From the NCBI GenBank assembly GCA_963675595.2, contig CAXXLZ010000001.1, positions 1,056,001-1,120,000 of the forward strand: a stretch of 64,000 nucleotides of DNA. Reading direction: 5' to 3'. The translations under genes and the position numbers were made by a program. The stretch is from Thermodesulfobacteriota bacterium (GTDB lineage Bacteria; Desulfobacterota; Desulfarculia; JACQYL01). Position 1 is the stretch's first letter, and each line of letters starts with the position of its first letter. The notes under the pieces were generated by a model that was not told the origin of the DNA, searched no databases, and saw only the letters and a list, made by a program, of their open reading frames with translations. This document shows positions 6,273 to 30,584 of this stretch, in pieces.

Positions 6273-7811
6273 TCAGGATCGGTGGTTTTCGCGAAGGAGG
6301 TCATTGACGCGTTTCACCGGGTTGAAGGTGAACAAAGGCACTTCCACGAACACCGTGAGCCAACGGGCCATGCCTCCGTTCCAGAGGCCCGGCAGTTCCA
6401 ACGCTTTCAGGGGTCTTCCCTGGTGGGACTTATCGCTGACGAACACGGCGTCCGGATCCCGGAAAGACTCAAGATCAAAAGGGCGGCCTTCGAAATCTCT
6501 CAGGCCGCAAACCAGGTCCACGGGGTTGAAATGGGTTGCGGATCGCCATATGTCTTGTTGCCGTTCGTCTTTCGGGTCCACTTGGGCGGACTCGACGATT
6601 TGCAGACTCGGTTCTCCATCGGTTCCCGTAACCCAGAAAGGACCTCCTCCAGGCTCGCCTTGGTTGCGTACCACGCCGCAAATTCGTAACGGCCGGTTCA
6701 GTTTTTCCATGAGCATTTCTTGTTTCTCGTACGGTCCCATACCGGAATATCCGTCCGGCAGGAAGACGTTTAACGTGGAGCGGGCGAAGTCGGCGATTCC
6801 ATCCAATTCCTCCGGAAGAAGTGTACTCTTTTTCAGTTTTTCCAGCCGGCGGAACAGAGATTTGCGGATTTTGAGAAGAAGGCCGCACAACAGTCTTTTC
6901 TGAAGCAGGACACGAGGCTTGAGCCGGTCCGGGACCACATTATCCACGTTCTTGATGAAGACCAGCTCTCCCACGCATTCTCGAAGGTTCTTCAGAAGTG
7001 CTCCGTGGCCTCCGGGTCTGCGCAAGAGGGTGCCGTCGTCGAGTCTGAAAGGACGATTCTCCAGATCTACGGCCAAGGTGTCCGTAGATGGATCCTGAAC
7101 CGAGAGTTCCACCTGGAACCGTACCGAGAGTGAGGCCTCAAGGCGAGATTTCACCTTACGCAAACATGCCTCCGCTTCTTTGATGTGTTCCGGGGAGAAG
7201 GTGAAATGCAGGCGGCACTGTCGGTTGCCATCGACGATATAGTGGGAGGCTTCAGCAAAATGTTCCTCAAATGCGGTTCTCGATCCTTCGGGATAGCTGT
7301 GAAATGGAACAAAGGCTTTGGGCAGGTTGGCAAGGTTCAGGCCTTGCGGGGTCAACAGCAGTTCCAGTATCCGAGAAGGGTCCGTCCTTCGTATCCAGTC
7401 TTCCACTTTGGTGACGGGCCTGTCCAACAAGCGGCAGAGATGATCGAAGAAGGCGAACTGCGGAAGTTCGTCCATGAATACCCGCATTCGCTCTCCGGCC
7501 TCGGAGTCCAAAGGCTCTCCCAAGTGTGCGCGGAGAGGGTCCTGAAACATTCGGGTGGCCGCACCGGAGGCGGGAACGAAGCACATGAGCCTCCCCGCGG
7601 CAGCGGCTCGTGCGTGTTCGTCCGAAAGTTCCGTGTCATCTTCCGGAAGTTCTCCGAGAACTCCGTCTCCGAGAGTCGCGGGGCGATTGAGGGTCAAATA
7701 ATGCGGCCCTTTTTTGAGAACCTCGACCTGCCTTCTCAATTCGTCGGCGTTCAGGTTCCGATCCGCCGGCCGACTCAGGTCTTGGGGGGTGAAAACGTCT
7801 TGCTCAGGCAT
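6273..7811 (-). CDS. DUF4301 family protein (nucleotide-diphospho-sugar transferase-like)
   Basis: Motifs FVPASGAATRMF, RPGGHGALL, FIKNVDNV, GEPGGGPFW, THFNPVDLVC and KALELPGLWNG. Confidence 0.85.
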   Translation of the reverse strand: MPEQDVFTPQDLSRPADRNLNADELRRQVEVLKKGPHYLTLNRPATLGDGVLGELPEDDTELSDEHARAAAAGRLMCFVPASGAATRMFQDPLRAHLGEPLDSEAGERMRVFMDELPQFAFFDHLCRLLDRPVTKVEDWIRRTDPSRILELLLTPQGLNLANLPKAFVPFHSYPEGSRTAFEEHFAEASHYIVDGNRQCRLHFTFSPEHIKEAEACLRKVKSRLEASLSVRFQVELSVQDPSTDTLAVDLENRPFRLDDGTLLRRPGGHGALLKNLRECVGELVFIKNVDNVVPDRLKPRVLLQKRLLCGLLLKIRKSLFRRLEKLKKSTLLPEELDGIADFARSTLNVFLPDGYSGMGPYEKQEMLMEKLNRPLRICGVVRNQGEPGGGPFWVTGTDGEPSLQIVESAQVDPKDERQQDIWRSATHFNPVDLVCGLRDFEGRPFDLESFRDPDAVFVSDKSHQGRPLKALELPGLWNGGMARWLTVFVEVPLFTFNPVKRVNDLLRENHRS

Positions 7812-8527: not shown

Positions 8528-9373
8528 ATGGAGCGAGTCTGCAAAGCGGTGATACCCGCGGCGGGTCGTGGCCTTCGGATGCGATCGATATCAGGCGGCA
8601 CGCCCAAAGAAATGCTGATCGTGGGTGGTAAGCCCATGATCCTGAGGGCGCTGGAAATGCACCTCGCCTGCGGAATAACGCAAATCGCCGTTTTGGTGTC
8701 TCCGGAAAAGATGTGGATGAAGGAGTATCTTTCCGGTTTGATCCGCGACGCGGATTCCTTTTCGTCCTTTTCGCGTGACGGCCGGCGGGCGGCGGAATTG
8801 CTGTTTATCGAGCAGGAGGAACCTCTAGGCGTGGCTCATGCGGTCTCCTTGTCCAGGGAGTTTGTGGGGAACCATCCTTTCGCGCTGGTCATGCCTGATT
8901 CTTTGTTGGCCGCACCTGTTTCCTTCCTCGCCCAGCTCCTGAAGGTATATTCGCAGTATCCGGTGGACACGATAGGTTTTTTCCGCCTGGAAAGATCTCG
9001 TGCTCACGAATTCGGGAATGTGGGGCTGCTGGAGGTGGAGCCGGTGGCTCCTCCCTTATATCGAGTGCTCCACCTGTCCGATAAAAATTCGGGCACGGTA
9101 CGATTCGAGGGGGAGAATCACGCCAAGGGTTTCGCGGGCGGGATTTACGGCCCGGGCTACTTTGATTTGATTCCTCGAGCCAATCCGGCCGGCGGGGAAC
9201 TGGACGATGTTCCCATCCATCAGGAACTGATTCACCGGGGCGCTTTGTACGGTGTGGAGTTGGAAGGGATTCCGTTTGACCTGGGGAATCCCGCAGGATA
9301 CCTTTCAGCGGCGAGATACTTTCAATCTGTTGCGCAAGGACTTGAGAACGAAGGTGCGGCGAATGGTCAATAG
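8528..9373 (+). CDS. Sugar-phosphate nucleotidyltransferase (GalU-like)
   Basis: KAVIPAAGRGLRM, PKEML, QEEPLGVAHAV and FDLGNPAGY. Confidence 0.82.
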   Translation: MERVCKAVIPAAGRGLRMRSISGGTPKEMLIVGGKPMILRALEMHLACGITQIAVLVSPEKMWMKEYLSGLIRDADSFSSFSRDGRRAAELLFIEQEEPLGVAHAVSLSREFVGNHPFALVMPDSLLAAPVSFLAQLLKVYSQYPVDTIGFFRLERSRAHEFGNVGLLEVEPVAPPLYRVLHLSDKNSGTVRFEGENHAKGFAGGIYGPGYFDLIPRANPAGGELDDVPIHQELIHRGALYGVELEGIPFDLGNPAGYLSAARYFQSVAQGLENEGAANGQ

Positions 9374-9560
9374 CCATACCCGAGACGTCATCAGAAAAGA
9401 ACTGGAACACCTGTCAACGGGACAATTGGAGCAGCTCCGCCAATGGTACGTGGAGCTTGTCCATAAAGATGATGCGATCCTCCGGGAGGAGGACATCTGC
9501 CATGCGGTTGTCGCTGGAGAAATCATCGACGAGCGAGCTAGAAAGAGACGTATCGATTAA
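9363..9560 (+). CDS. Small hypothetical protein (65 aa)
   Basis: ATG overlaps the end of the upstream gene. Charged helical composition; no recognised motif. Confidence 0.5.
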   Translation: MVNSHTRDVIRKELEHLSTGQLEQLRQWYVELVHKDDAILREEDICHAVVAGEIIDERARKRRID

Positions 9561-9607
9561 TCTAAAAGATATTCTGAGGCCGGAAACTCGGCTGAGAGGG
9601 CCGACGG

Positions 9608-9964
9608 ATGTGGATATTTTCAATGGACGGATTTTTCTCCGTCGTTTCCAAACACTGCGGACCCGACGAAGTCCTGGTAAGGACTCGACGTCGTTCGGAT
9701 ATGAATAGGTTTCTCGAAAGAATCGGGAGGACCGACATTCCCGTTCTGGAGATTTCAGGTTCGGACTACGCTTTCCGGACCAAGGTCCCGAGGGACCTAT
9801 GGGCCGAATACCTGAGCGATCATGCCTCGGCGGACATTGACTACGATAATTTTCGCGTGGCCCTTGAGCTGCTTTACCCGGATGACTCGCAGCGGAGAGA
9901 GGCGTACCACCGGGTGTACGAAATCATGGCGGCATGGCAGGACGAGCCGGACGAAACGGAGTAG
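9608..9964 (+). CDS. Hypothetical protein
   Basis: Protein-like sequence (MWIFSMDGFFSVV...VLVRTR...DYAFR...IDYDNF) with a GAGAGGG SD. Confidence 0.7.
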   Translation: MWIFSMDGFFSVVSKHCGPDEVLVRTRRRSDMNRFLERIGRTDIPVLEISGSDYAFRTKVPRDLWAEYLSDHASADIDYDNFRVALELLYPDDSQRREAYHRVYEIMAAWQDEPDETE

Positions 9965-9989
9965 GAATCGGCAGTTCCGGAAAAAGGAA

Positions 9990-10220
9990 TCAAAAAAGTC
10001 GGGGCTCGTCGCGTTCGTCGGGGGAGGTTTCTTCCGAGGAGACGAAGACGGCTCGGACGCGGTGCTTTACAAGGCGGGACGACATTTCGGAGAAAAGAAA
10101 AGGCTCCCGAAAATCCCTGAAATCGGGGCATTTCAAGGCCCTTCGGCATTTCTTGCAGACTTCCACCGCCACTCGGGGCTGATTCCGTCTGTTCGTGCAT
10201 GTGATGTATCTGGTCGTCAT
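9990..10220 (-). CDS. Small Cys-rich hypothetical protein
   Basis: C-x13-CxxC-x5-C spacing suggests metal binding. Directly downstream of the pil operon on the same strand. Confidence 0.45.
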   Translation of the reverse strand: MTTRYITCTNRRNQPRVAVEVCKKCRRALKCPDFRDFREPFLFSEMSSRLVKHRVRAVFVSSEETSPDERDEPRLF

Positions 10221-10294
10221 GTGTTCGCAGGACTTTTCTTAGTCACACGGTGAGTCATGTCCGAAGCCGGGGCCGCGGTAAAACCTCGGCTCCT

Positions 10295-12307
10295 TTAACT
10301 GCTCGTTGTTTCTCCGATTCCGATGGTGACTTCCCTCTTTCCTTTGGAACCGCCGTTCTTCTCCGATACGATGAGCCGGTCGGGTAGAATCTTGACGACT
10401 TTTCCGCCGGCGCTGCCGAGAGATTCTCGGAGTCCCACCACATACTCGTTCCGGCGGGGGTCCTGAACCAAGGCTTTAACCATGTTGCCTCTGGACATGA
10501 TCCCGACGAACCGGAATGCTTTCGCCTCAAGGCTGCGCAAGCCCGTATCCGGCATCACAAAGGAGCCTTTCGGGTCCAAGCGGGCCAAAGTGCGGGGGAA
10601 AGGTTTGAAAGGATCCCTCAGGTCACGGGGAGAAACGGCGTAAGGCTCGGGAATCCGTTCAAGGTCGGCATCGGGAGCCGGGGCGATCCAAACGAATCGG
10701 CCGCAACGAAGCTGTTGCAGGTTGCCGGCGTCGAGTATCCGTTCAAGCGCCTCATCCAGAGATTGCACCTCCATTTTCAAGGTGATCCGCCCTTGAACTT
10801 CCGGTGCGGCCACTAGTTGCAACCCGTTCAAACTGCCTACCATTCGAAGGGCGCTCCGAATTTCCGCGTCATGAAAGTCGAAGCTGACCGCACCATTGCG
10901 GTCGGCTTTGCGCACGGAAGTCGAGGGGGAGGGAACGCTTTTTTTCCGTTGAGACGCCGTATACGCGGCCACAACGGACTTGGTTTCCTTCTTCCGGGCG
11001 ACTGTTGCCGTTGGTGCCGGTTCGGCGGACTCGCGGCGAAGCTCGCGAGGGGGGCCTGCATGGACGGTTTCCGCAGTTGATAACCGCTGTTCGGGGGAAC
11101 TCTCTTTTGTCTCGTCACGGACTTTTTCGGCCAAGGTCGGAAGAACGGGAGCTTTTCCGAACTCAAAAGCGGTGTCCGGTTCGGCAAGGCTCGAGTCGAG
11201 GAGACTGATTTCCGTGGATGCTCTATCAAGGGAGGGTGACGAGAAAACCACAAACACTTCGCGGGGCTCCTCGCGGATTTCCGCGGGGGGAGTCAGCGCA
11301 CCTGCGAATTCGAATACAATGCGGGTCTTGTCCTCGTGTTTCCCGATTCTGACTTCCTTTAGACCACCTCGATTCAAAGCCAGGGTGTCCAGAGCCTTGG
11401 AAGGATGAACCCCGTATAGGTCCAGTACCAATCGGTCCGGGGCCGAAAGCTCGAACCGGTGGACCCGTTGAATGTCTTCTTTTGAATGAATTCGGAATTC
11501 GATGCGGTCCGAAAAAACCTTGTAGGAAGCCACCACGGATGAAGAATCTCCCAGCGCCCCGGATTCAATGGGGCTTTCGGGCCGCTTCAACTCTATGGGA
11601 GGCGCCGGCAAGGCCGGTGTGCTCTCCTCGGCGGCCGGCACGGCTTGCTCTGTTTCAACGGGGGGGGTCTCCACCGCACCTTGTCCGGGCTGGATCAAAA
11701 TTCGTTTGGAGAATCTTGCGTAAGGATCCGGAGTCGAGGCCGTCGGTTCCTCGGCCGTACCACTTTTGGATGCCGGCCCCTCGGTTTCAGGCTCGGGGAG
11801 TTCTTCCGCGACTTCGTCGGCACGGGCCTCGGGTCGTCCGATGGACTCACGGGCGGTTGCGGCAACCCCGACCGGCTTCAGAACGAACGTTAGTTGGTTG
11901 TCTCGGGTTGAGGCCTCGTATTCGGCGTCTTCGGTGAGCGCCGCCGTGAGCAGCACGTATTCTATTTCCGGAACTCCGGAAGACTTCACCGTAACGTTTC
12001 GGATCAAACCCGCTCCTGGAAGCTCGCGGTTCTTTAGAGACGGATCCAAAGCGGTGTGGGGAAATTCCACCAGGAGCCGTAACGGATCGAACAGTTTGTA
12101 GGCTGCGTATACGAGCTCGTGAGGGCTCTGGATCGTCAGCTTGGTCCCCTCGGAGTCCTCATGGACAGCGACGGCACCGACCATCGCAACGGGCTCCTGG
12201 GGTTGGCCCGGAGTTTCCTTCTTGACCGCTTTCCCGGATTCGCACGAGACGAAAACCGACGAGCAGAGAAAAACGATCAACACGAGGCAACACAGACGTC
12301 TGGTCAT
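10295..12307 (-). CDS. Lipoprotein: AMIN-AMIN-PilQ N0-PilP fusion with no secretin domain
   Basis: Lipobox-like VFVSC. Two AMIN repeats (DPLRLLVEF; APDRLVLDL...VRIGKH). N0-like VSFDFHDAEIRSALR...GRITLKM. C-terminal PilP-like RDPFKP...FVGI...ALVQDP...GKVVKILPDRLIVSE. Confidence 0.8.
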   Translation of the reverse strand: MTRRLCCLVLIVFLCSSVFVSCESGKAVKKETPGQPQEPVAMVGAVAVHEDSEGTKLTIQSPHELVYAAYKLFDPLRLLVEFPHTALDPSLKNRELPGAGLIRNVTVKSSGVPEIEYVLLTAALTEDAEYEASTRDNQLTFVLKPVGVAATARESIGRPEARADEVAEELPEPETEGPASKSGTAEEPTASTPDPYARFSKRILIQPGQGAVETPPVETEQAVPAAEESTPALPAPPIELKRPESPIESGALGDSSSVVASYKVFSDRIEFRIHSKEDIQRVHRFELSAPDRLVLDLYGVHPSKALDTLALNRGGLKEVRIGKHEDKTRIVFEFAGALTPPAEIREEPREVFVVFSSPSLDRASTEISLLDSSLAEPDTAFEFGKAPVLPTLAEKVRDETKESSPEQRLSTAETVHAGPPRELRRESAEPAPTATVARKKETKSVVAAYTASQRKKSVPSPSTSVRKADRNGAVSFDFHDAEIRSALRMVGSLNGLQLVAAPEVQGRITLKMEVQSLDEALERILDAGNLQQLRCGRFVWIAPAPDADLERIPEPYAVSPRDLRDPFKPFPRTLARLDPKGSFVMPDTGLRSLEAKAFRFVGIMSRGNMVKALVQDPRRNEYVVGLRESLGSAGGKVVKILPDRLIVSEKNGGSKGKREVTIGIGETTSS

Positions 12308-12337
12308 TTCTCGTTCTCTCGATCGTGGGTTGAGGGA

Positions 12338-13924
12338 TCAACGCACCGTTGGACTCAGCGGATCTCCGAGCTTGACGAATGCCGTTTTGCCCGTGGACGA
12401 TTCGATTAATTCGATACGATCCGGCAATATGCGGGCCACCTGCCATGAGCTTTGGGCAATGCGCGTCTTTCCGGATACAATGTAGGCGCGGTGCTCCGGA
12501 TCTTCCAACAGTGCTTTGCCCGCCGAGCCGCCGACCGCGATTCCTCTCAGTCTCAGATCGCCGATTTTCTGACTGGAAAAGGGCTTGGGAGCAACCCTGC
12601 GAGCTTCGCTCCACGTCGTCGGGGGCGGGCCGGCCGCCTGGATCACCTCTTCGAAAGCCTGATCCCAGGTCACGTCGTCGATACTGACCGATACCACACC
12701 CCGCAGGTTGGACCCGGCGACGATGTTCTTCTTGCTCATATCACTGATGAGGCCGAGGACGCCTTTCAAATCGGCTTCAAGGGTATTGAGAGAGAACACT
12801 TCCACGGCCCCCACCTCAGGCGCCGGGGGAAGCGACTCCGGCCGCTTTTTCAACGGTTGCGATTCGGCTTCCGCCGGTCCGGGAGACGGCTGGACCGGCG
12901 CGGGTCTATCCGTGAGCAAAGGCGGGGTCTCGAACTTCGGTTCCGGAGCCGGTTTGACTGCTTCCGGAGTTGGCGCGGGAGCGGGAGACACCGATTTAAG
13001 CTGTTGCGCGGGCTTCTTGAGAGGGGTTGCAGGCTTTTCCTGAGAGACCGGGAGAACATCCTTGTTGAGACGGAACAGCAGTCTCAGCTCATTGGAGTTC
13101 TTGTTCACTTCCGTTTCGGGCATGGAGCCCGGATTGAACTCGAATACCAGCCTAATCTTGTCGGGGTGGCTCCCCAGGCGCACCTGTCTGAGCTCAGGCC
13201 GATCCACAATCAGTGTTCGCGACGGACCGGTGGTCGAAACGCCGAATAGGTCAAACACCAGGCGCGGGGGAGATTCGAGGGTAAACCTGCTGATGCGGCT
13301 TAGTTCGCCTGCGGAGCGGACCAGGACGATGACCCTGTCCTCGTAGGATTCGAAGGAGACTTTGAGGGAGTCCGACTCTCCCACGGCACCTTTCCGGAGC
13401 GGCGGGTGCTCCACCGTCTTAGACACGAGGGGCTGGGAGATCGGCGCTTTTTCCTCGGGCAGGGCGGTCTCCTGAATGTGCATCGCTGGCCTCAGGGCAA
13501 ACGAAAGGCCTTGATCTGAAACCGAAGTCTCATAGACGACTTGCTGCTCAAGGACGAGGGTGATTCTGATGCCGCCTTCATCCGTGCCCACCAGCGGACC
13601 TACGTCGGCTCGCTCGACGAGCTTTCCTTCCATGTCAAGAACCGGAGGATCCGGTGTCCTTCTGGTTGCACCGGGAAGGTCCACCACGAATCGGGTCGGT
13701 GCGGACATGAGATAAGCTTTGAACAACAAGTTCGAATCGCCCTGCACGGTCAACCTCGCTACGTCTCCATCCTCTTTCACGGAGATCGTGCCGACCGTCC
13801 GGGCCTTCTCTGTGGGAAGCGCCGGAGAGGGGCCTTTGGCGGGGCCTGCGCAACTTCCACTAAAAACAACCGGAAGCAGCGCCAAGAGCACGGCAATAAC
13901 GCCTTTAGTCCGTCGAAAAACCAT
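12338..13924 (-). CDS. Paralogous lipoprotein: AMIN-AMIN-PilQ N0-PilP fusion with no secretin domain
   Basis: Start reassigned to ATG 13924 (MVFRRTKGVIAVLLALLPVVFSGSC lipobox). AMIN motifs APTRFVVDLP and SPPRLVFDL. N0-like ADLKGVL...NIVAG...DVTWDQAF. PilP-like DLRLRGI...ALLEDP...ILPDRIELIE. Confidence 0.8.
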   Translation of the reverse strand: MVFRRTKGVIAVLLALLPVVFSGSCAGPAKGPSPALPTEKARTVGTISVKEDGDVARLTVQGDSNLLFKAYLMSAPTRFVVDLPGATRRTPDPPVLDMEGKLVERADVGPLVGTDEGGIRITLVLEQQVVYETSVSDQGLSFALRPAMHIQETALPEEKAPISQPLVSKTVEHPPLRKGAVGESDSLKVSFESYEDRVIVLVRSAGELSRISRFTLESPPRLVFDLFGVSTTGPSRTLIVDRPELRQVRLGSHPDKIRLVFEFNPGSMPETEVNKNSNELRLLFRLNKDVLPVSQEKPATPLKKPAQQLKSVSPAPAPTPEAVKPAPEPKFETPPLLTDRPAPVQPSPGPAEAESQPLKKRPESLPPAPEVGAVEVFSLNTLEADLKGVLGLISDMSKKNIVAGSNLRGVVSVSIDDVTWDQAFEEVIQAAGPPPTTWSEARRVAPKPFSSQKIGDLRLRGIAVGGSAGKALLEDPEHRAYIVSGKTRIAQSSWQVARILPDRIELIESSTGKTAFVKLGDPLSPTVR

Positions 13925-13946
13925 AAAAACAGGTCGCCTCACGAGT

Positions 13947-14519
13947 CTACTCGGATACCGAGCCGTAGGTTCGGATGGAGAAGTCTCCTTCAAGAACCAC
14001 CGAGGTTCCGGATATTTCATGTGGTTCCAACACCAGCCGGTCAAACTCCAGGATTTTTTCAAGACGATCCACAGCCGAAAAGAACTCGGAAAACTGGACG
14101 TATGTTCCCAAGGCCCTGACATGAATCGGTGTCTCCATGAAGTCCTCAAGCTCGGTTTGCGCGCCGATGTCGAAGGATACAAAGCGGATCCCGGATGCAT
14201 TCGCCGCTTCCGTGAGTCCCCTGGCGACCGCCATTGTGCCTCCCGTTCCCGGCAGCAGGACACGCAGTTTTTCAAATTCCTTGCGCGCTTGCTCTATTTC
14301 CAGGCCAACGTTCCGGAACTCCTCTTCCATAGCTTTGAGGTCGGTGTTGGCTTGTTCGAGGCTTCCGATCTCCTCGGATAACTTTCGTGATTCTTCTCGG
14401 TGGATCTGAAAAAAGACGAAATAGAAGAGTGCCGCCACGGCGAGAAGAGAGCACACCCACACCAGCAGAACCAGGGCGGAAGCCCCATTCTCGGCCCGTG
14501 ATCCGAATGTGCGTCTCAT
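13947..14519 (-). CDS. pilO: Type IV pilus assembly protein PilO
   Basis: N-terminal TM helix, coiled coil, LP motif and ETPIHVRALGTYVQFSEFFSAVDRLEKI. Follows pilN. Confidence 0.82.
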   Translation of the reverse strand: MRRTFGSRAENGASALVLLVWVCSLLAVAALFYFVFFQIHREESRKLSEEIGSLEQANTDLKAMEEEFRNVGLEIEQARKEFEKLRVLLPGTGGTMAVARGLTEAANASGIRFVSFDIGAQTELEDFMETPIHVRALGTYVQFSEFFSAVDRLEKILEFDRLVLEPHEISGTSVVLEGDFSIRTYGSVSE

Positions 14520-15166
14520 ACGCGGTCTTTCAGCGAGAAAGTGATCTGAAATTCCATTCCGTCTTCCGAAGATGCTTTTGCAGTCGGCGAGCCGGACGCT
14601 GTTTCTTCTTTGGATCCTTTCTTCTTCGAATCTTCATCGGCGTCAGGACCCGGACTCTGAAGATCTTTCCATTGTGAAGGCACCAGCCCTCTCTCCGTGG
14701 AAACAAGGGCCACCGACCCGAAGTGGGGAGATTCGCCCAAGCGTTGCAGATACTCGTCCACGACCTTCCGGTCCGTAGCTACCCCATTTATTACCACCTT
14801 ACCCCCCTGCATTTCCAGGCGAGACAAGAATATCTTATCCGGAATCAGGGCCTTGCTCAACTGATCAAGGAGCAGAATGGGCGCGCTTTTCTTGTGAGCC
14901 AAGTTGACAATGAAGTCGATTTTTCGATGAATATCGGTGTTTTCTTTGCGCATTGCATCCAAGGCACCGGCCGAATAGACGAGTTCCCTGTTTTCGGCCT
15001 GCTTTTCCGCCCGGGCGCGCCTGAGGCGATCGAGATTTTCAGTGCGTTGGTAGTAGATGTAGAAGCAGAGGGAGAGGGCCAGAAGCATGATCGCGGCATA
15101 GACCCAGCCATGGCCGAGTACGCCGCCTTTCTCCCATCGATTGGGCGAGAGGTTGATCCGGATCAC
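14516..15166 (-). CDS. pilN: Type IV pilus assembly protein PilN
   Basis: MIRINLSP (INLLP-like) PilM-binding N-terminus, TM helix, coiled coil and a PilN-type C-terminal domain. Confidence 0.87.
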   Translation of the reverse strand: MIRINLSPNRWEKGGVLGHGWVYAAIMLLALSLCFYIYYQRTENLDRLRRARAEKQAENRELVYSAGALDAMRKENTDIHRKIDFIVNLAHKKSAPILLLDQLSKALIPDKIFLSRLEMQGGKVVINGVATDRKVVDEYLQRLGESPHFGSVALVSTERGLVPSQWKDLQSPGPDADEDSKKKGSKEETASGSPTAKASSEDGMEFQITFSLKDRV

Positions 15167-16224
15167 TGAACTCCTCGCTTTCTCAGTGCGAGCCCAACAC
15201 CGACGCCGGCAAGGGAACCGGATTCGGTTAGGTAATCGGGATCGAACTTGGCCGAGGGGGCCTCCATACCGGCGAACGGGTTGAATATACCCACCTCGAT
15301 ACCGATTTTGTCCTGTAGGTAGGGTGCGAGCCCCATAATCCGTGCGCCGCCGCCGGCCAAGCCGATTTCACGGACACGAACGCCGTCGTGGGTTCGTTCG
15401 ACCAAGTCCGTCAGCCCACGGATTTGCGCAGACCACTGATCCGCGGTATCGAAAATGATTTCCCTGACTTTCTCAAAGACGTCGTGCGTAACCGCCATGC
15501 CCAGTTTTATCCGTTCAGCTTCCGCGTCGTCAACTTTCAAACACTCTTTGATCCGCAGATCGATCTCTGTTCCGCCGGGCGAGAGCTCTTTAACTAGAAG
15601 GGACTTGCCCTGGTGGACAACGTTGACATGGATGCGTTCCGCCCCTAAATCAGCCAACATGACCGGAGTGGTATGATTCGGCGAGGTGGCTTCGTAAGCG
15701 TTTTGCAGCGCCAGAGGGCCGGCGTCGATAACCTTGGCCGATATTTTCGCCTTGGCCGCCAAATCAAGCAGCGCCTGGACATGGACCGCTTTGGCCGCCA
15801 CAAAGAGAACTTCGGCTTTGTCTCCTTTTTTCCGTGGAGGCGCGATCATTTGGGCGTCCGTAATCAATTCGTTCAGGTCGAGGGATAACCTGTCCTCCGC
15901 CTCCTTCTGCACCGCCTTGGCAAAATCCTTGTCTCCGGCGTATCTCAGGGAGATATGTTCGACGAATAGGGGAAGTTCCGAGGACGCCACGGCGAATTCC
16001 CGGGACGTGATGCGAAGATTCTTGAGGAGGGCGCGAATTTGATGGGCCAGGAAGTCTCGGTCTTCTTCGTCTTCCAGGTAGGCTTGTCTTCGGGGAAGCC
16101 GTAACATGCCGAAATCGAGGAGCTTCGGCTTACCACGACCCGGCTTGACCCTACAGACCTTGAGAATGCGGGCTCCGATATCCAAGCCGATGAGAGGCTT
16201 TTCGGCACCGAAGAATCCCATCAT
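15163..16224 (-). CDS. pilM: Type IV pilus assembly protein PilM (actin-like)
   Basis: IGLDIG..LKV, ADLGA, AERIK, LAGGGA, FNPF and VGVGLALR. Confidence 0.92.
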   Translation of the reverse strand: MMGFFGAEKPLIGLDIGARILKVCRVKPGRGKPKLLDFGMLRLPRRQAYLEDEEDRDFLAHQIRALLKNLRITSREFAVASSELPLFVEHISLRYAGDKDFAKAVQKEAEDRLSLDLNELITDAQMIAPPRKKGDKAEVLFVAAKAVHVQALLDLAAKAKISAKVIDAGPLALQNAYEATSPNHTTPVMLADLGAERIHVNVVHQGKSLLVKELSPGGTEIDLRIKECLKVDDAEAERIKLGMAVTHDVFEKVREIIFDTADQWSAQIRGLTDLVERTHDGVRVREIGLAGGGARIMGLAPYLQDKIGIEVGIFNPFAGMEAPSAKFDPDYLTESGSLAGVGVGLALRKRGVQ

Positions 16225-16227
16225 GAA

Positions 16228-16428
16228 TTAGTCGCTTCCAAAAACTTGATCGTGATCTGCCAGGTCAAAGCCGAGCGCCAAAAGGACCTTCCTCTTGGTT
16301 TCCATTCGACAGTTGAAACCCTTTTCGATTCGATCGATGGTGATGGGGGAAACACCGGCTTTCCGCGCGAGTTCAGCCTTGCTCATGAGCAAACGCTCAC
16401 GGGCCGCTTTGACCCTGTTCAGGGGCAT
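16228..16428 (-). CDS. Small XRE-family HTH protein heading the pilMNO operon
   Basis: HTH sequence MSKAELARKAGVSPITIDRIEKG. Ends 3 nt before pilM. Confidence 0.88.
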   Translation of the reverse strand: MPLNRVKAARERLLMSKAELARKAGVSPITIDRIEKGFNCRMETKRKVLLALGFDLADHDQVFGSD

Positions 16429-16657
16429 GGTCGGTCCCTCCACAGCCGTCAATTGAAATGTTTTATGCTCTATTACCGTCTCTTCAAACTATTTTGTCAA
16501 GTTTTTTCATAACTGTGCATAAATTAGCATAAATTTTGTATGCGCCGGACCGGACTTTTTCCGGACTTTTTCCGCTTGCGTTACCCTTGCGAGGTTACTA
16601 AAATGCGCTTCACCCCAATGGGGAATCTCATAACAAGGAAGAGAGAATCCGCAAGGA

Positions 16658-17302
16658 ATGAGTAGTGCCAACACAAAAGCCGCCGTCGACTCCGAATCCT
16701 CCCCAAGGAAAAGCTCCACCCGGGAATATACCGAAGCGATCATCACGGCGATCATACTTGCTTTGATTGTCCGGACTTTCGTGGTCCAGGCTTTCAAGAT
16801 TCCCTCCGGGTCCATGATCCCCACGCTCATTGTCGGGGATCACATCCTGGTTAACAAATTCCGCTACGATATTAAGATTCCTTTTCTGAACAAGCCCTTG
16901 TTTCGAATATCGGACGAGCAGAGGGGCGACGTGGTGGTCTTCATCTTCCCTGTGGATCCCTCCAAAGACTTCATCAAGCGGATCATCGGCTTGCCGGGGG
17001 ATCGAATCCAGGTAATCGACAAGAAGCTTTACGTGAACGACAAGCCTGTTCCCGATATTCACGCGGTGCACATGGACAACAAAACCTCGAAAGAAGGCCA
17101 GAGGGATTATTTCGGACCGGTAACGGTCCCTGAAAACTCCTATTTTGTGATGGGGGACAACCGGGATTCCAGTTGGGACAGCCGAGTGTGGGGATTCGTA
17201 AAGGCGGACGCCATACGAGGCAAGGCCTTTCTGATCTATGGTTGCTGGAATCTGAGCGACTTCGAGATCAATTTCTCCCGATTTTTCAAGACGATCAATT
17301 GA
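16658..17302 (+). CDS. lepB: Signal peptidase I
   Basis: IPSGSMIPTL (Ser), FIKRIIGLPGD (Lys) and MGDNRDSSWDSR. Confidence 0.97.
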   Translation: MSSANTKAAVDSESSPRKSSTREYTEAIITAIILALIVRTFVVQAFKIPSGSMIPTLIVGDHILVNKFRYDIKIPFLNKPLFRISDEQRGDVVVFIFPVDPSKDFIKRIIGLPGDRIQVIDKKLYVNDKPVPDIHAVHMDNKTSKEGQRDYFGPVTVPENSYFVMGDNRDSSWDSRVWGFVKADAIRGKAFLIYGCWNLSDFEINFSRFFKTIN

Positions 17303-17439
17303 ACAATCCCCGGTTTCGCCTACGGCGCGTCCATGTCGGCGACCTGCCGGGCCGATCTGCTGAAGACACTTCAACGAGGAATGGTTTGTTTAGGCCGACG
17401 GCAAGGCGCCTCCAACGAACCGGTAAGCGGAGAGGGGAG

Positions 17440-17502
17440 ATGCTTCGAGGAGTTCGGCTTCGCTTCAACAGCTTTCAGGAGCCCACCACTACGGGTTCAT
17501 GA
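17440..17502 (+). CDS. Putative pyrB leader peptide (20 aa, [20 protein letters not shown])
   Basis: GGAGAGGGGAG SD. The stop codon sits 2 nt before the terminator stem. Not called as a separate ORF in the track. Confidence 0.45.
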
Positions 17503-17504
17503 CC

Positions 17505-17536
17505 GCCCCCCTTGCTTTCAATGGGGGCTTTTTTTT
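17505..17536 (+). terminator. Intrinsic terminator / attenuator just upstream of pyrB
   Basis: GCCCCC-loop-GGGGGC followed by T8. Confidence 0.75.
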
Positions 17537-17549
17537 GACAAGGGCGACA

Positions 17550-18479
17550 ATGACCTTCTTAGGCAAAGACCATCTTCTCGGAATGGCCGAGGCTTCGCGG
17601 GAGGAGATCGAAATCATCCTCAGGACCGCCGAGAGTCTCAAAGAGATTTCAAGCCGTGACATCAAAAAGGTTCCGACGCTCCGAGGGAAGACGGTCATTC
17701 ACTTCTTCTGCGAACCCAGCACCAGGACCCGCATGTCCTTTGAAATCGCCGCCAAGAGACTAAGCGCGGATACCATCAACCTTTCGGCTTCCACCAGTAG
17801 TCTTACCAAAGGCGAAACCCTCATCGACACGGTGCGTAACCTCCAAGCGATGAATCCCGACGTGCTGGTGTTGCGCCATCCCATGAGTGGAGCGCCCCAT
17901 TTTGTGGCGCGAAACGTGCAGGCTTCCGTGGTAAACGCCGGAGACGGCCGGCACGAACATCCGACCCAGGCTCTACTGGACATGATGACGGTTTCCGAAA
18001 AGAAGGGGCGGTTGGACGGGCTCAAGATTTCCATCGTGGGCGACATTGCCAACAGCCGTGTAGCGCGGTCCAATATTCTGGGATTTACCGCCATGGGATC
18101 CCAGGTCACCTTGGCGGGACCGCCGACCATGATGCCCATATACGCGGAGCGCTTGGGCGCCAAAGTGACTCATGACCTGGACGAGGCCGTTGAGGATGCG
18201 GATGTGATCATGGTGCTCCGGATTCAACTCGAAAGACAGGCGGAATCCCTGTTCCCCTCGACTCGCGAATACGCGCGCCACTTTGGATTGAACACGAAAC
18301 GCCTGAAGAAAGCCAAGAAGGACGTCATTATCATGCACCCGGGACCCATCAACCGGGGTGTGGAAATCGCACCGGAAGTGGCGGACGGCCCCTATTCGGT
18401 GATTCTGGACCAGGTAACCAACGGAGTCGCGGTGCGTATGGCGGTTCTGTACTTGTTGTTGGGAGGAAAAGAGGCGTGA
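17550..18479 (+). CDS. pyrB: Aspartate carbamoyltransferase catalytic subunit
   Basis: [33 protein letters not shown] and HPGPINRG. Start moved to ATG 17550, downstream of the terminator. Confidence 0.97.
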
Positions 18480-19783
18480 AATGGGTGCTGAAAGGCGGCA
18501 CGCTGGTCCATCCGGAGTCTCAAAGGATGGAACGAGCGGACCTCTTGATCTCCGATGGCCAAGTGGAGGCGTTTCTCTCTCTCGAAGAATCAACAACTAT
18601 TGAAAGGGAAGGCCTACTTCGTGTCGTTTCGGCGGAAAACCGGATCGTAACACCGGGACTCGTGGACATGCACGTGCATCTTCGAGAGCCGGGAGAGGAG
18701 TACAAGGAAACCATCTTTTCCGGCACAAAGGCTGCCGCTGCGGGAGGATTCACTGCAGTGGCCTGCATGCCCAACACCCTGCCGGTAAACGACACCCGTT
18801 CGGTGTCGGAATTCATTCTGAAGCAGGCAAAGGCTGCGGGATTCGCTCGTGTGTATCCCGTGGCTTCTATAAGTAAAGGTTCCTTGGGAGAGGAACTGGC
18901 GGAATTCGGAGAACTGGCGGAGTCCGGAGCCGCCGCTTTCAGCGATGACGGAAAGCCGGTCTGCAATGCCCTGCTTATGCGGCGCGCGCTGGAATATTCT
19001 CGGACTTTCGGAAAACCCATCATCTCCCATCCGGAAGAACTGCAGATCAGCCGAGGGGGCTGCATGCACGAGGGGGAAGTCTCCACCCGTCTGGGCCTCA
19101 AGGGGATCCCCTCGGAGGCGGAAGAGATCATGGTCCACCGGGATATCGCTCTGGCTCGCCTGACGGAAGGCCGACTGCACTTGGCCCACGTGAGTACGGC
19201 CGGCTCGGTTGAACTTATCCGAAGGGCCAAAGAGGAAGGAATCCAAGTCACGGCGGAAACCGCACCTCATTATTTCTCCCTGACCCACGAGGCTGTTGAA
19301 GGATACGACACCCGAGCCAAAATGAATCCTCCGTTGCGCACCGCCCGGGATGTGCAGGCCGTCCGTGACGGGCTCCGAGAAGGAGTACTGGATGCGGTGG
19401 CCAGTGATCATGCACCCCATTCCAGTCTGGAAAAGGATGTGGAGTTCGAGCGTGCGGCCAACGGGATCATCGGCCTCGAAACCGCTTTGGGGCTGACCCT
19501 CTCCCTGGTGGATCAAGGCGTCTTGACTCTTTTTCAAGCGATTCGCAGCCTTTCCACGAACCCGGCACGTATTCTTGGAATCCAACAAGGGGAAATTCGA
19601 CCCGGCTGCAAGGCGGATTTGACGATCATTGACCCCGACGTCACCTATGTGGTTGATTCCTCGTCATTTTATTCCCTTAGTCGAAACACGCCCTTTGACG
19701 GGATGCGATTGAAGGGCAGGGCCGTTATGACCGTCCTGGACGGCGTTCCGGTTGACCTTTCCCGGGAATCCGCCGATTTTTGA
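18476..19783 (+). CDS. pyrC: Dihydroorotase (type I)
   Basis: [21 protein letters not shown] and ASDHAPH. GTGA overlap with pyrB. Confidence 0.96.
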
Positions 19784-19985
19784 TTTGCGGACCCTGAAGA
19801 ATGCCGCGTAGGACCGAGACGACCAATCAGGGTCTCCGCCGCAGGACCGAGAACGGTCTGTGCTCCCTTCCCTTGGGCGATGAGTTTTCCAGCCGAAGCC
19901 TCAGGCTCCCGACGCCCATCCCCGACCGCCGTCACCGAATGATCGGCGGGTCTCAAAAGAAATGATTGGTGAACGGAAAAAATGA

Positions 19986-28067: not shown

Positions 28068-30401
28068 TCAGAGGGATCCCTCGGATTCTTCCTCCTCGGA
28101 CCGATACCACCGGGTTCCCTCCGGCCCATCGATCAGTCGCACACCCCGTTCCATCAAGGCGTCCCGCAATCGATCCGCCTCCGTCCAATTCCGTTCCTTT
28201 CGCGCCGTTTCTCTGCGAGCCAGAAGCGCCTCCTCTTCTTCAGTGAGGAGGACCGACGGAAAATCCATAATCATCAGCACCGAATTAAAACTGCGGAGGA
28301 GTTCCAGCGCCTCGGCCATGCGTTCGGCCCGCAGTTCGTTTCGGGAAATCATGGGGTTGACTTTGCGGGCGAAGGTGAATACCGACGCCAAAGCCGCCGG
28401 AACGTTCAGGTCGTCGTCCATGGCTTGGTTGAAACGGCTTTTCAATTCGTAGAGCAACTGTGGAGTTTCTTTGGCTCCCGGGCCGGGCTTGGCGAAGGTC
28501 AGTCTTCGAACGAATTCATCCAGCCGCTGGAGTCCGTTTCTCGCCGACTGGAGCGCCTCGTGGGAATAATTGAGCGGTTTGTGGTGGTGCTGAGTGAGCA
28601 ACCAGTATCTGACCTCCCTGCCCGAATACCCCTGTTCCAGCAGGTCCCGAAGAGTCACCATGCCTTCCGCCGATCGAGACATTTTGCGTCCCTGCAGCAG
28701 CACCAGCTCGCAGTGGAGCCAATAATTGGCGAAACGCTTTCCGGTCAACGCCTCGACGATGGCGATTTCGTTTTCATGGTGGGGGAAGATCAGGTCGGTT
28801 CCGCTCGTGTGGATGTCGATGGTTTCGCCTAAATGTTTGGTCGACATGGCGGCGCACTGCAGATGCCAACCGGGTCTTACGTTGCCCCAGGGGGTCTTAT
28901 AGAATATGCCCCGTTTCAATTCCGCCAGAGTGGATCTCTTGAGCAGTGTGAAGTCCCGGGGATTGTCTTTTTCATATTCATCCAGGTCCACCGTCTTGCC
29001 CACGTGGATTTTGCTCAAGTCCACCCGGGACAAGTTGCCGTAATGTTCGAAACGTGAAATGTCGAAGTACACCGAACGAAACTTCTCGTAGGCGATTCCT
29101 TTATCGAGGAGTTTTTGCGTGAGTTGGAACATCTCCTCGATGCATTCGCTGGGAACGGGATAATGATCCGCCCGTTTGACATCCAACGTATCGATGTCCT
29201 TAAGGATTTCTCCAATGTATCCCTGGGTGTAATCCTTGATGTCCTTGCCCGCTTCGCTGGAACCGTCGATGGTCTTATCGTCGATGTCCGTGATGTTCAT
29301 GACGTGGGTGACCCGGAATCCGCGGTACTCGAGATGTCTTCTCAAGACGTCGGCGAACACGATCCTGCGACAGGTGCCCAGATTCATGAATCCGTGGGCC
29401 GTGGGACCGCAGGAGTACATGGTCACTTCGCCCTCTTTGAGCGGGATGAAGTCTTCCTTGTCACGGGTCAACGTGTTGAAAAAGCGTATGGGCGATCTCT
29501 TGCGATCCTGGAACAGCGTGGTGCTGAGGTAGCGCTCCCCGCTGTCGGGGAAAAGGACCACGATCAAGCCCTCGTCCAATTCCTGGGCCGTTCGGTAAGC
29601 CAGGGCCATGGAGGCGCCGGCGCTCATGCCGACCAGGAGTCCTTCCTCTCGTACCAGCCGCCTCGCCGTCTCGAAGGCTTCTTCGTCCTCGATGTTGACG
29701 ATGGCGTCCAGTCGAGTCTTGTTGAAGATTCCCGGCTTGTAGGACTCTTTCATGTTCTTGAGCCCCTGGATCTTGTGTCCCAAATAAGGTTCCACGCCGA
29801 GGATCCGGATGTCGGGGTTGTATTCCTTCAAGCGTCGACTCACACCCATGAGCGTGCCGGAGGTCCCCAAAGAGGCCACGAAGTGTGTGACGGCTCCTTG
29901 GGTTTGTTGCCATATCTCTTCGCCCGTTCCTTCGTAATGGGCCCGGATGTTGTCTTCGTTGTTGAACTGGTCCGGAACGAAGTACTTTTCGGGATATTCT
30001 CGCGCCAAGCGGTAGACTTCTTCGATGGCACCGTCGGTCGAAAGTCGGGCGGGCGTGAGGAGCAGTTCGGCCCCGTATGCTTTGAGGATTTTCTGGCGCT
30101 CGATACTCGCCGATTCGGACATGGCCAAAGTGATGGGGTAGCCTTTGACGGCCGCGACCATGGCCAAGCCGATGCCGGTGTTTCCGCTGGTGGCCTCAAG
30201 GATGGTCTTCCCCTGGATTTCACCGCGAGCTTCGGCGCCTTCGATCATGTAGAGCGCCACGCGATCCTTGACGGAGCCTCCGGGGTTGCAGGATTCGAGC
30301 TTGGCGTAGATGCGGACCTTGTTCTTGGGTCGGATTCTACGAATTTCGACCAGAGGGGTGTTACCGATCAGGTCGAGGATGGTGTTGTGTTTTTCTTTCA
30401 T
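28068..30401 (-). CDS. cysS: Cysteine synthase (CysK/CysM-like) fused to cysteinyl-tRNA synthetase
   Basis: N-terminal half has IGNTPLV, NPGGSVKDR (PLP Lys), TSGNTG and GTSGT. C-terminal half has CGPT, NITDIDDK, RPGWH.QC, FPHHENE, KMSRS and MDDDLN. The frame is continuous. Confidence 0.93.
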   Translation of the reverse strand: MKEKHNTILDLIGNTPLVEIRRIRPKNKVRIYAKLESCNPGGSVKDRVALYMIEGAEARGEIQGKTILEATSGNTGIGLAMVAAVKGYPITLAMSESASIERQKILKAYGAELLLTPARLSTDGAIEEVYRLAREYPEKYFVPDQFNNEDNIRAHYEGTGEEIWQQTQGAVTHFVASLGTSGTLMGVSRRLKEYNPDIRILGVEPYLGHKIQGLKNMKESYKPGIFNKTRLDAIVNIEDEEAFETARRLVREEGLLVGMSAGASMALAYRTAQELDEGLIVVLFPDSGERYLSTTLFQDRKRSPIRFFNTLTRDKEDFIPLKEGEVTMYSCGPTAHGFMNLGTCRRIVFADVLRRHLEYRGFRVTHVMNITDIDDKTIDGSSEAGKDIKDYTQGYIGEILKDIDTLDVKRADHYPVPSECIEEMFQLTQKLLDKGIAYEKFRSVYFDISRFEHYGNLSRVDLSKIHVGKTVDLDEYEKDNPRDFTLLKRSTLAELKRGIFYKTPWGNVRPGWHLQCAAMSTKHLGETIDIHTSGTDLIFPHHENEIAIVEALTGKRFANYWLHCELVLLQGRKMSRSAEGMVTLRDLLEQGYSGREVRYWLLTQHHHKPLNYSHEALQSARNGLQRLDEFVRRLTFAKPGPGAKETPQLLYELKSRFNQAMDDDLNVPAALASVFTFARKVNPMISRNELRAERMAEALELLRSFNSVLMIMDFPSVLLTEEEEALLARRETARKERNWTEADRLRDALMERGVRLIDGPEGTRWYRSEEEESEGSL

Positions 30402-30584
30402 GAGTTTGGTCGAGTCCGTCCGGTTTTCCTGAACACCGGGGCAGTGACAGGGCGAGTGGTTGGCCAAGAAACGGTCGAGATTGAATTACTAGATCGACCC
30501 GTGGAATTCAAACAAAAAGGAGGCGATCACGGCTCCTGTGGAGACAAGGTGTCGGCAAGCGGTGAGTAGTTCTCCCCTTTTTCC

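Follow-up and report, generated by a model that had tools for sequence, protein, structure and literature searches.

A stretch of 64,000 nucleotides from the genome of a Thermodesulfobacteriota bacterium (Desulfobacterota; Desulfarculia; JACQYL01; assembly GCA_963675595.2, contig CAXXLZ010000001.1), which as a whole is called the window here, carries an operon of type IVa pilus genes in which pilM, pilN and pilO are followed neither by a separate pilP nor by the secretin gene pilQ. Their place is taken by two genes, designated A and B, each of which encodes a protein with two AMIN domains, an N0 domain and a PilP domain in this order. The source genome (G000; three contigs, 98% complete; the window is C1:1056001-1120000) is without PilQ, PilB, PilT and PilC and cannot build a type IVa pilus; pilMNO together with A and B are all that remains of its type IVa pilus genes. 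As PilQ, PilB, PilT and PilC are gone, the module cannot belong to a type IVa pilus. Our results suggest, with what we judge to be slightly better than an even chance, that the operon encodes a repurposed, peptidoglycan-tethered PilMNO-(A/B) scaffold, a young and lineage-specific remodelling that is kept by selection.

Domain architecture of A and B

Six genes, namely a helix-turn-helix (HTH) gene, pilM, pilN, pilO, A and B, are closely spaced on the minus strand (10295-16452). The 4-nucleotide overlaps between pilM and pilN and between pilN and pilO, and the remaining gaps of 3, 22 and 30 nucleotides, are operon-like. Gene A (12338..13924, 528 amino acids) and gene B (10295..12307, 670 amino acids) are predicted to encode lipoproteins, judging from signal-like N-termini that end in Cys25 and Cys22, respectively. 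The start of A was set at the Met before the signal-like segment; the mechanical open reading frame (ORF) extends to 14275 and overlaps pilO. The initial annotation had read both products as AMIN-AMIN-N0-PilP proteins, with domain coordinates that proved right to within about 30 nucleotides, and this architecture without a secretin domain was confirmed by Pfam, profile comparison (hhalign), AlphaFold models and Foldseek.

The AMIN domains were detected by Pfam in two stretches per protein (13496-13786 and 13085-13303 in A, 11882-12172 and 11285-11470 in B), with 59.3 and 59.2 bits for the two proteins at a cut-off of 20.5 bits. For the C-terminal domains, hmmscan gave B 24.4 bits for PilP (cut-off 25.6 bits), 19.7 for N0 and 17.5 for STN, and A 13.5, 13.8 and 15.9 bits, respectively, under the curated cut-offs; in a six-frame search of the genome the PilP of B reached 27.1 bits and exceeded the cut-off. 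Aligned with hhalign to a profile of PilQ-type N0 domains, B matches over the full domain (about 10670-10897; 98.8%, E 5e-17) and A at profile positions 35-95 only (about 12620-12802; 97.2%, E 4e-11), and the PilP beta-domain of A (about 12398-12592) matches a profile of 24 PilPs (96.9%, E 1.6e-10). An AlphaFold2 model of residues 465-670 of B has a mean pLDDT (predicted local distance difference test) of 81, with both domains above 90, and a pTM (predicted template modelling score) of 0.49. It consists of a beta-alpha-beta-beta-alpha-beta-beta domain, which is the N0 topology, and a beta-sandwich, which is the PilP beta-domain (about 10316-10513). Against the PDB, the best Foldseek matches of this model are to the PilP structures 3jc8 chain P, 2lc4, 2y4x/2y4y and 2ivw (E 2e-6 to 3e-4), which come from Myxococcus xanthus, Pseudomonas aeruginosa and Neisseria meningitidis, and to the PilQ N0 domains in 4ar0, 4av2 and 3jc8 chain Q. 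In the model of A, the PilP part has a pLDDT of 85-95 and the N0 part of 56-79. The segment RDPFKPF, the consensus of the 24 PilPs for the N-terminal segment ahead of the beta-domain, is kept in B (10598-10618) and missing from A, whose PilP match begins after it. The modelled linker of B was given no weight; the alignment misplaced the N-terminal motif of stand-alone PilPs. Between A and B the identity is only about 25%. At E up to 1, Pfam detected neither Secretin nor Secretin_N (N1) in the two proteins, and the six-frame search of the genome brought up no stand-alone PilP at the same limit; the initial observation that the operon has no stand-alone pilP and no secretin thus agrees with both searches.

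Each chain holds both partners of the known PilP-N0 contact, and the two paralogues have different junctions, that of B being complete and that of A lacking the N0 hairpin and the PilP N-terminal segment. As the initial annotation suggested, A and B could be imagined to polymerise head-to-tail, the N0 of one subunit being bound by the PilP of the next, so that a closed ring anchored to the wall would result. In known machines it is the N1 domain and the barrel of the secretin that organise the ring, and both are absent from A and B. The single-chain model of B has confident domains but a pTM of only 0.49. A ring of this kind is considered quite improbable. A complex prediction with the C-terminal modules of B and A scored 0.15 (mark 0.32), a value that speaks neither for nor against contact between the two.

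Origin of the chimeras

A canonical pyrC-pyrB-lepB-HTH-pilMNOPQ locus that is orthologous to the operon region is kept in five related genomes. In G001 and G002, which belong to the same family as G000, and in G003, which belongs to the same order, Pfam resolves this locus as pyrC-pyrB-(lepB)-pilM-pilN-pilO-pilP-pilQ, with PilP in ORFs of 175-289 amino acids and PilQ in proteins of 844-1006 amino acids of the type AMIN-N0-Secretin_N-Secretin. In the other two (G004 and G014), the ORF that matches the N0 of B also bears a secretin domain. The neighbours pyrC, pyrB, lepB and HTH are the same in the window as in the pil locus of the relatives; therefore, the two loci are orthologous. Gene B was queried against 40 related genomes, and both of its halves were matched in seven of them, in separate ORFs in every case: the N0 half in a long ORF (750-1006 amino acids) and the PilP half in a short one. 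Since pilP and pilQ are both normal where the relatives carry the orthologous locus, the fusion is derived and lineage-specific.

Residues 1-151 and 229-546 of B align to G001 PilQ at 38% and 30% identity, respectively, and residues 538-670 align to residues 30-179 of G001 PilP (180 amino acids) at 39% identity; gene A aligns to both proteins in the same manner. The PilQ of the relatives also has a signal-like start ending in Cys, and the lipobox of A and B therefore comes from PilQ. Quick trees place the two halves of each chimera with the PilQ and PilP of the family itself (Shimodaira-Hasegawa approximate likelihood ratio test values of 92 and 84). Judged from these alignments and trees, A and B are chimeras in which the N-terminus of the family's own PilQ is joined to PilP, B containing almost the whole mature PilP and A the beta-domain only. 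The trees of the PilQ half and of the PilP half are long-branched and leave the sister relation of A and B unsettled, so that one fusion followed by a duplication is indistinguishable from two fusions.

The order Q-then-P had been taken in the initial annotation as a sign that no simple read-through was involved, and rightly so, as this order is impossible by read-through of pilP-pilQ. A and B were formed in place out of a canonical pilP-pilQ pair; the simplest and probable path is a tandem duplication of pilP-pilQ and then a deletion that kept the frame and reached from the end of N0 into the following pilP. A layout of the intermediate type is present in a Nitrospinota genome, where the gene for an N0-N0-PilP protein of 492 amino acids has a normal pilP on one side and a normal pilQ on the other.

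Loss of the pilus machinery and the remaining secretins

The secretins of G000 are four only: two GspD in complete type II secretion system (T2SS) clusters and two in Tad loci. All four T2SSE ATPases over the cut-off lie within T2SS/Tad clusters, and T2SSF domains are found solely there. When G000 was searched by tblastn with the PilQ of a relative, no remnant of a PilQ-type barrel was found, the C-terminal half matching only GspD; a separate canonical pilMNOPQ elsewhere in the genome, which the initial annotation had left to be looked for, does not exist there, and the loss of the whole pilus had not been considered in that annotation. In the five relatives the number of T2SSE matches is 7-10 per genome, and neighbouring genes of PilT and PilB size are among them; G000 has no orthologue of these. 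At the syntenic site (C2 about 2572720-2574734) the ATPase cluster is absent: its flanks map to C2 about 2568850-2572720 and 2574734-2579053, and about 2 kb of unrelated small ORFs lie between them. An ORF of 213 amino acids with an AMIN domain (26.2 bits; C2:2572854-2573495, minus strand) stands exactly at the site of the pilT-pilT-pilB-like cluster of the relatives, adjoining a small HNH-like ORF and an RNase H gene. In the whole of G000, AMIN domains are confined to A, B and two small ORFs.

Two complete Tad/Flp loci are present in G000 (C2:1231961-1235449 and C1:1695566-1699048, with RcpA, RcpC, TadZ-like, TadA, TadB/C, TadE/G and TPR proteins), and it may be that Tad pili took over from type IVa pili in this lineage. 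In the two T2SS clusters, two unassigned ORFs were compared with the PilP profile by hhalign and gave probabilities of 9% and 0.7%.

The four secretins are possible partners of A and B. As adaptors, a role that the initial annotation had considered, A and B would dock through their PilP domains on the N0 of a GspD or Tad secretin and thereby give it a hold on peptidoglycan and a base of the PilMNO type. All four secretins lack an AMIN domain, one T2SS cluster is about 27 kb away, and G000 has two Tad secretins, whereas just three secretins were seen in either of G001 and G002, namely two of GspD size and PilQ. There is also a precedent in GspB/OutB, which has an HR/PilP-like domain that binds the secretin N0 and is tied to the wall (PMC9239104). 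On the other hand, both T2SS clusters have GspL-like and GspM-like genes of their own, and the relatives hold the same two GspD-type secretins plus a normal PilQ, so that no new need is evident. No co-localisation or co-variation with a secretin was seen, and the N0 domains that A and B themselves possess would be competitors for binding to PilP. We regard an adaptor role as rather improbable.

Constraint or decay

The operon could be a decaying remnant, in which pilMNO and rearranged pieces of pilQ and pilP have not yet been destroyed and the products are inert. Several observations speak for this, and some of them also weigh against a scaffold that is kept by selection. PilB, PilT, PilC and the secretin barrel are gone, and PilM matches PilM_2 more weakly than in the relatives (120 bits vs 214-242). 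The N0 of A is truncated, lacking its last hairpin, and is modelled with low confidence, which could mean partial decay of A. PilM is changed at 23 of 59 columns with a conservation of 90% or more across 30 other PilMs, an amount of change that relaxed constraint may also explain; the five relatives retain 55-58 of these columns, a figure that is partly circular because the relatives helped to define the conservation. The conservation of A and B was seen only among strains about 3% apart, and the architecture occurs in one genome only of those searched.

Two sequencing runs, X3 and X4, were compared with the window, X4 being from a different study. In X4, a single contig of 11,877 nucleotides is collinear with 8978-19800 and has 359 differing letters (about 3%). 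In X3, a contig of 6,223 nucleotides covers 11144-17366 with 19 differences; it ends at 11144 at a depth of 2.5, and 9182-10757 of the window are uncovered. The independent X4 contig has the same gene order, and the operon is thus not a misassembly. In the initial annotation a normal pilQ in relatives had been held to imply misassembly or a recent deletion; normal pilP and pilQ genes are indeed found in the relatives, but misassembly is contradicted by the X4 contig, and a fresh deletion is probably contradicted by a PilM of the same lineage in another organism. The latter, P0154, is encoded on a metagenome contig of 43.9 kb; the PilM lineage which it shares with G000 indicates that the fusion is probably not a fresh deletion.

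Against decay, first, stand the differences between the strains. Within genes the indels are in frame in total (+9 nucleotides in the first linker of B and -6 in the linker of A), and the sole out-of-frame indel, of 11 nucleotides, is intergenic. P0002, a 94% homologue of B with three additional residues at the site of the X4 linker insertion, differs from B at 1.5-4.6% of the positions in AMIN1, AMIN2, N0 and the PilP beta-domain, as opposed to 17.6% in linker 1, so that the domains change several-fold more slowly than the linker; over the C-terminal 231 residues the two are 97% identical. Among the 40 strain differences listed of 406, seven lie in the operon and are common to X3 and X4, and five of these seven are synonymous.

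Second, there is the history of PilM. The neighbouring PyrB and PyrC of G000 are 70-76% and 60-65% identical to those of the relatives, the same range as among the relatives. The PilM of G000 is 34-38% identical to the PilMs of the relatives, vs 61-73% among the latter, and it is 74% identical to P0154. In a maximum-likelihood tree, the two form a clade with 100/100 support inside the family, on a stem of 1.91 changes per site, followed by tips of 0.22 (G000) and 0.17 (P0154), vs 0.15-0.22 in the relatives. Despite such a stem, all five reading frames have stayed open along 6 kb. In the alignment, PilM can be seen to keep the phosphate and adenosine motifs of the actin fold, and in 11 of the 23 changed columns the new residue is identical in P0154. 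This pattern is that of a burst followed by normal constraint in two lineages; it is not predicted by decay and is the strongest argument against it.

Third, PilN, PilO and the PilP part of B have not diverged more quickly than their counterparts in relatives whose pilus works. The identity of PilN is 37% between G000 and G001 and 33% between G001 and G002, that of PilO is 22-30% between G000 and the relatives and 29-34% among the relatives, and the PilP part of B is 39% identical to G001 PilP, with 41% between the PilPs of G001 and G003. From these comparisons the periplasmic parts do not appear accelerated, which fits contacts between PilN/PilO and PilP that have been kept. Taken together, the sequence comparisons indicate that the operon is probably constrained and not decaying; decay is considered unlikely.

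A proposed scaffold

What could a PilMNO complex do without a pilus? In the scaffold that we favour, the module would comprise cytoplasmic PilM, bitopic PilN and PilO, and A/B. PilM-PilN-PilO-(A/B) would form an inner-membrane complex that is tied to the cell wall and has neither an outer-membrane pore nor a filament. Each A/B chain would carry a lipid anchor on the outer-membrane or periplasmic side, two AMIN domains, N0 and PilP, and the recruitment chain leading from AMIN to N0/PilP, from there to PilN/PilO and finally to PilM would be hard-wired into single polypeptides. In P. aeruginosa, PilP and the AMIN domains of PilQ monomers recruit PilO to future division sites, before secretin assembly and independently of it (PMC5285504). 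By analogy with Pseudomonas, the expected position of the complex would be the peptidoglycan of the septum or the poles, where it could serve as a scaffold or landmark for a process other than a pilus. The cytoplasmic face of PilM, which normally meets PilB, PilC and PilT, may have been rebuilt after the loss of these partners. It is from the kept parts and their known counterparts that we infer complex formation, tethering to the wall, localisation and a new function.

More tentatively, and with a clearly smaller chance of being correct, it can be proposed that the module is a second, independent and young exaptation of the type IVa alignment complex, in a phylum other than Campylobacterota, which acts as a self-targeting division-site or pole module and scaffolds another process of the envelope. 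If this is true, an exaptation could be observed nearly in progress, with both the ancestral and the derived state available for comparison: the ancestral pilMNOPQ survives in sister genera at the same locus, and the derived state is a compact five-gene module that looks constrained although no pilus can be made with it. What is known about the reuse of machine parts comes mainly from old examples, the flagellar cage of Campylobacterota among them, whose intermediates are gone. A functional module would be a tractable system for studying the roles of PilM, PilN, PilO and PilP apart from pili, and a natural single-chain version of the AMIN-PilQ(N0)-PilP chain that has been proposed for pole targeting; it would also test whether it is mainly the contacts with PilB, PilC and PilT that shape the PilM sequence. 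Should the module have no function, it would simply capture one stage in the loss of a pilus.

Distribution of the architecture

A search of 340 other genomes did not turn up the fusion. In 300 sampled genomes of the phylum, N0 and PilP were matched in separate ORFs throughout. One match, in G105, spanned N0 into the PilP part and was rejected, being an ordinary PilQ beside an ordinary PilP. A HMMER search with the N0-PilP part of B returned 1062 proteins at E up to 0.001, and below 1e-30 only B's own cluster. The matches of the N0 part include many proteins with 2-6 N0-like repeats, and those of the PilP part are PilPs of 130-250 amino acids. Some unrelated proteins also combine N0 and PilP, namely P0025 (AMIN-N0-N0-PilP, 548 amino acids), P0027 and P0203 (both N0-N0-PilP), P0043, P0131 and P0004, and in P0009 and P0044 the two are found in reverse order. 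A metagenome scan with B yielded no relative, and one with P0154 yielded only nine loci at 22-36% identity. The word-based protein search with B returned only B itself, P0002 and one PilQ-like protein, and in the ESM Atlas the best score was 0.80, under the useful range. No description of an AMIN-N0-PilP protein was found in the literature, of which subscription-only papers were not covered.

Many metagenomic proteins of 240-1350 amino acids (P0004, P0005, P0006, P0010-P0013 and others) have 2-6 tandem N0/STN-like domains and no secretin domain, and some add TPR and a PilP-like domain, P0004 being arranged as TPR, two N0, PilP and two N0. They appear to represent an uncharacterised periplasmic family. 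The 492-residue N0-N0-PilP protein mentioned above is secretin-less and is encoded in a complete pilMNOPQ operon of a Nitrospinota metagenome-assembled genome (L048:9557-11035); homologues with 74-86% identity are present in three further Nitrospinota records (L049-L051).

Other operon genes and the neighbourhood

Upstream of gene A on the minus strand, pilO (13947..14519) encodes 190 amino acids (PilO 57.8 bits) and overlaps pilN by 4 nucleotides, and pilN (14516..15166) encodes 216 amino acids (PilN 48.9 bits) and overlaps pilM by 4 nucleotides. The N-terminus of PilN reads MIRINLSP and retains the PilN-type cytoplasmic motif. The actin-like ATPase encoded by pilM (15163..16224; 353 amino acids) matches profile positions 1-339 of the 340 of PilM_2 at 120.2 bits. 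The XRE-type HTH gene (16228..16452; 74 amino acids; Pfam HTH_3 32.9 bits) lies on the same strand, 3 nucleotides upstream of pilM, and a homologue with 64-85% identity is found upstream of pilM in six of the six related loci examined. The HTH gene is much better conserved than the pil genes behind it, and it may have a role beyond the pilus operon. Upstream of it, an 11-nucleotide unit, CCGGACTTTTT, is repeated in tandem at 16550-16575, with one unit fewer in the X4 strain. The scan for promoters and terminators gave matches at chance level only.

Beyond the other end of the operon, the synteny with the OmpA-family and Big_1 genes that lie downstream of pilQ in the relatives is lost in the window. 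A gene for a DUF4301 protein (6273-7811, minus strand; 512 amino acids, 606 bits) is located just past the end of gene B and adjoins two 4HBT thioesterases and a nucleotidyltransferase. Farther away, an ORF of 799 amino acids (28068-30467, minus strand) contains a PALP domain (247.8 bits, residues 31-308) and a complete cysteinyl-tRNA synthetase (tRNA-synt_1e, DALR_2 and CysS_C), and thus represents a cysteine-synthase-like domain fused to this synthetase.

Comparison with known systems

One comparison is with the canonical type IVa pilMNOPQ of M. xanthus and P. aeruginosa and of the relatives G001-G004 and G014, which have it at the orthologous locus with the same gene order as far as pilO. 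The PilM_2, PilN, PilO, AMIN, N0 and PilP domains are common to both. The operon differs in having no Secretin_N, no Secretin and no separate PilP; Q-then-P is joined twice, and PilB, PilT and PilC are absent from the genome. The N0-N0-PilP proteins of Nitrospinota (P0203 and L048; Pfam N0 46.5 and PilP 38.4 bits) resemble A and B in that N0 is followed by PilP in one secretin-less polypeptide; unlike A and B, they have no AMIN and are the products of an extra gene in a complete pilMNOPQ operon. GspB/OutB of the Dickeya T2SS shares with A and B a homology-region domain of the PilP/GspC type that binds the secretin N0, together with attachment to peptidoglycan (PMC9239104); OutB, however, is anchored in the membrane as an accessory to a secretin that works, and has no AMIN or N0 of its own.

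The nearest precedent comes from Campylobacterota and is a documented exaptation of the alignment complex. There, FcpMNO, the PilP-loop/PilQ-N1 chimera PflD and PflA, which has an AMIN-like domain, make up a cage around the flagellar motor of species that have no further pilus genes (10.1101/2025.02.19.638559; PMC10823254). The same parts recur in G000, i.e., an orphan PilMNO, PilP/PilQ chimeras and AMIN domains with no other pilus genes, and G000 has FliG; PilMNO with A and B could therefore be an accessory of the flagellar motor that forms a periplasmic cage, as in Helicobacter and Campylobacter. FliG is, however, also present in four of the five relatives with a normal pilus locus, so that flagella are uncorrelated with the change, and the operon is not near flagellar genes, FliG being on another contig. 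The architecture differs as well, as PflD is composed of a transmembrane segment, the PilP loop and PilQ N1, whereas A and B are composed of a lipobox, two AMIN domains, N0 and PilP. We consider a flagellar role very improbable. For the scaffold that we favour, the system of Campylobacterota is nevertheless a close parallel, since in both cases PilMNO is kept without other pilus genes and is accompanied by a chimera derived from PilP and PilQ and by an AMIN domain. The remodelling in G000 differs in belonging to another phylum, in being independent and in being much younger, with A and B still 30-39% identical to the PilQ and PilP of neighbouring genera.

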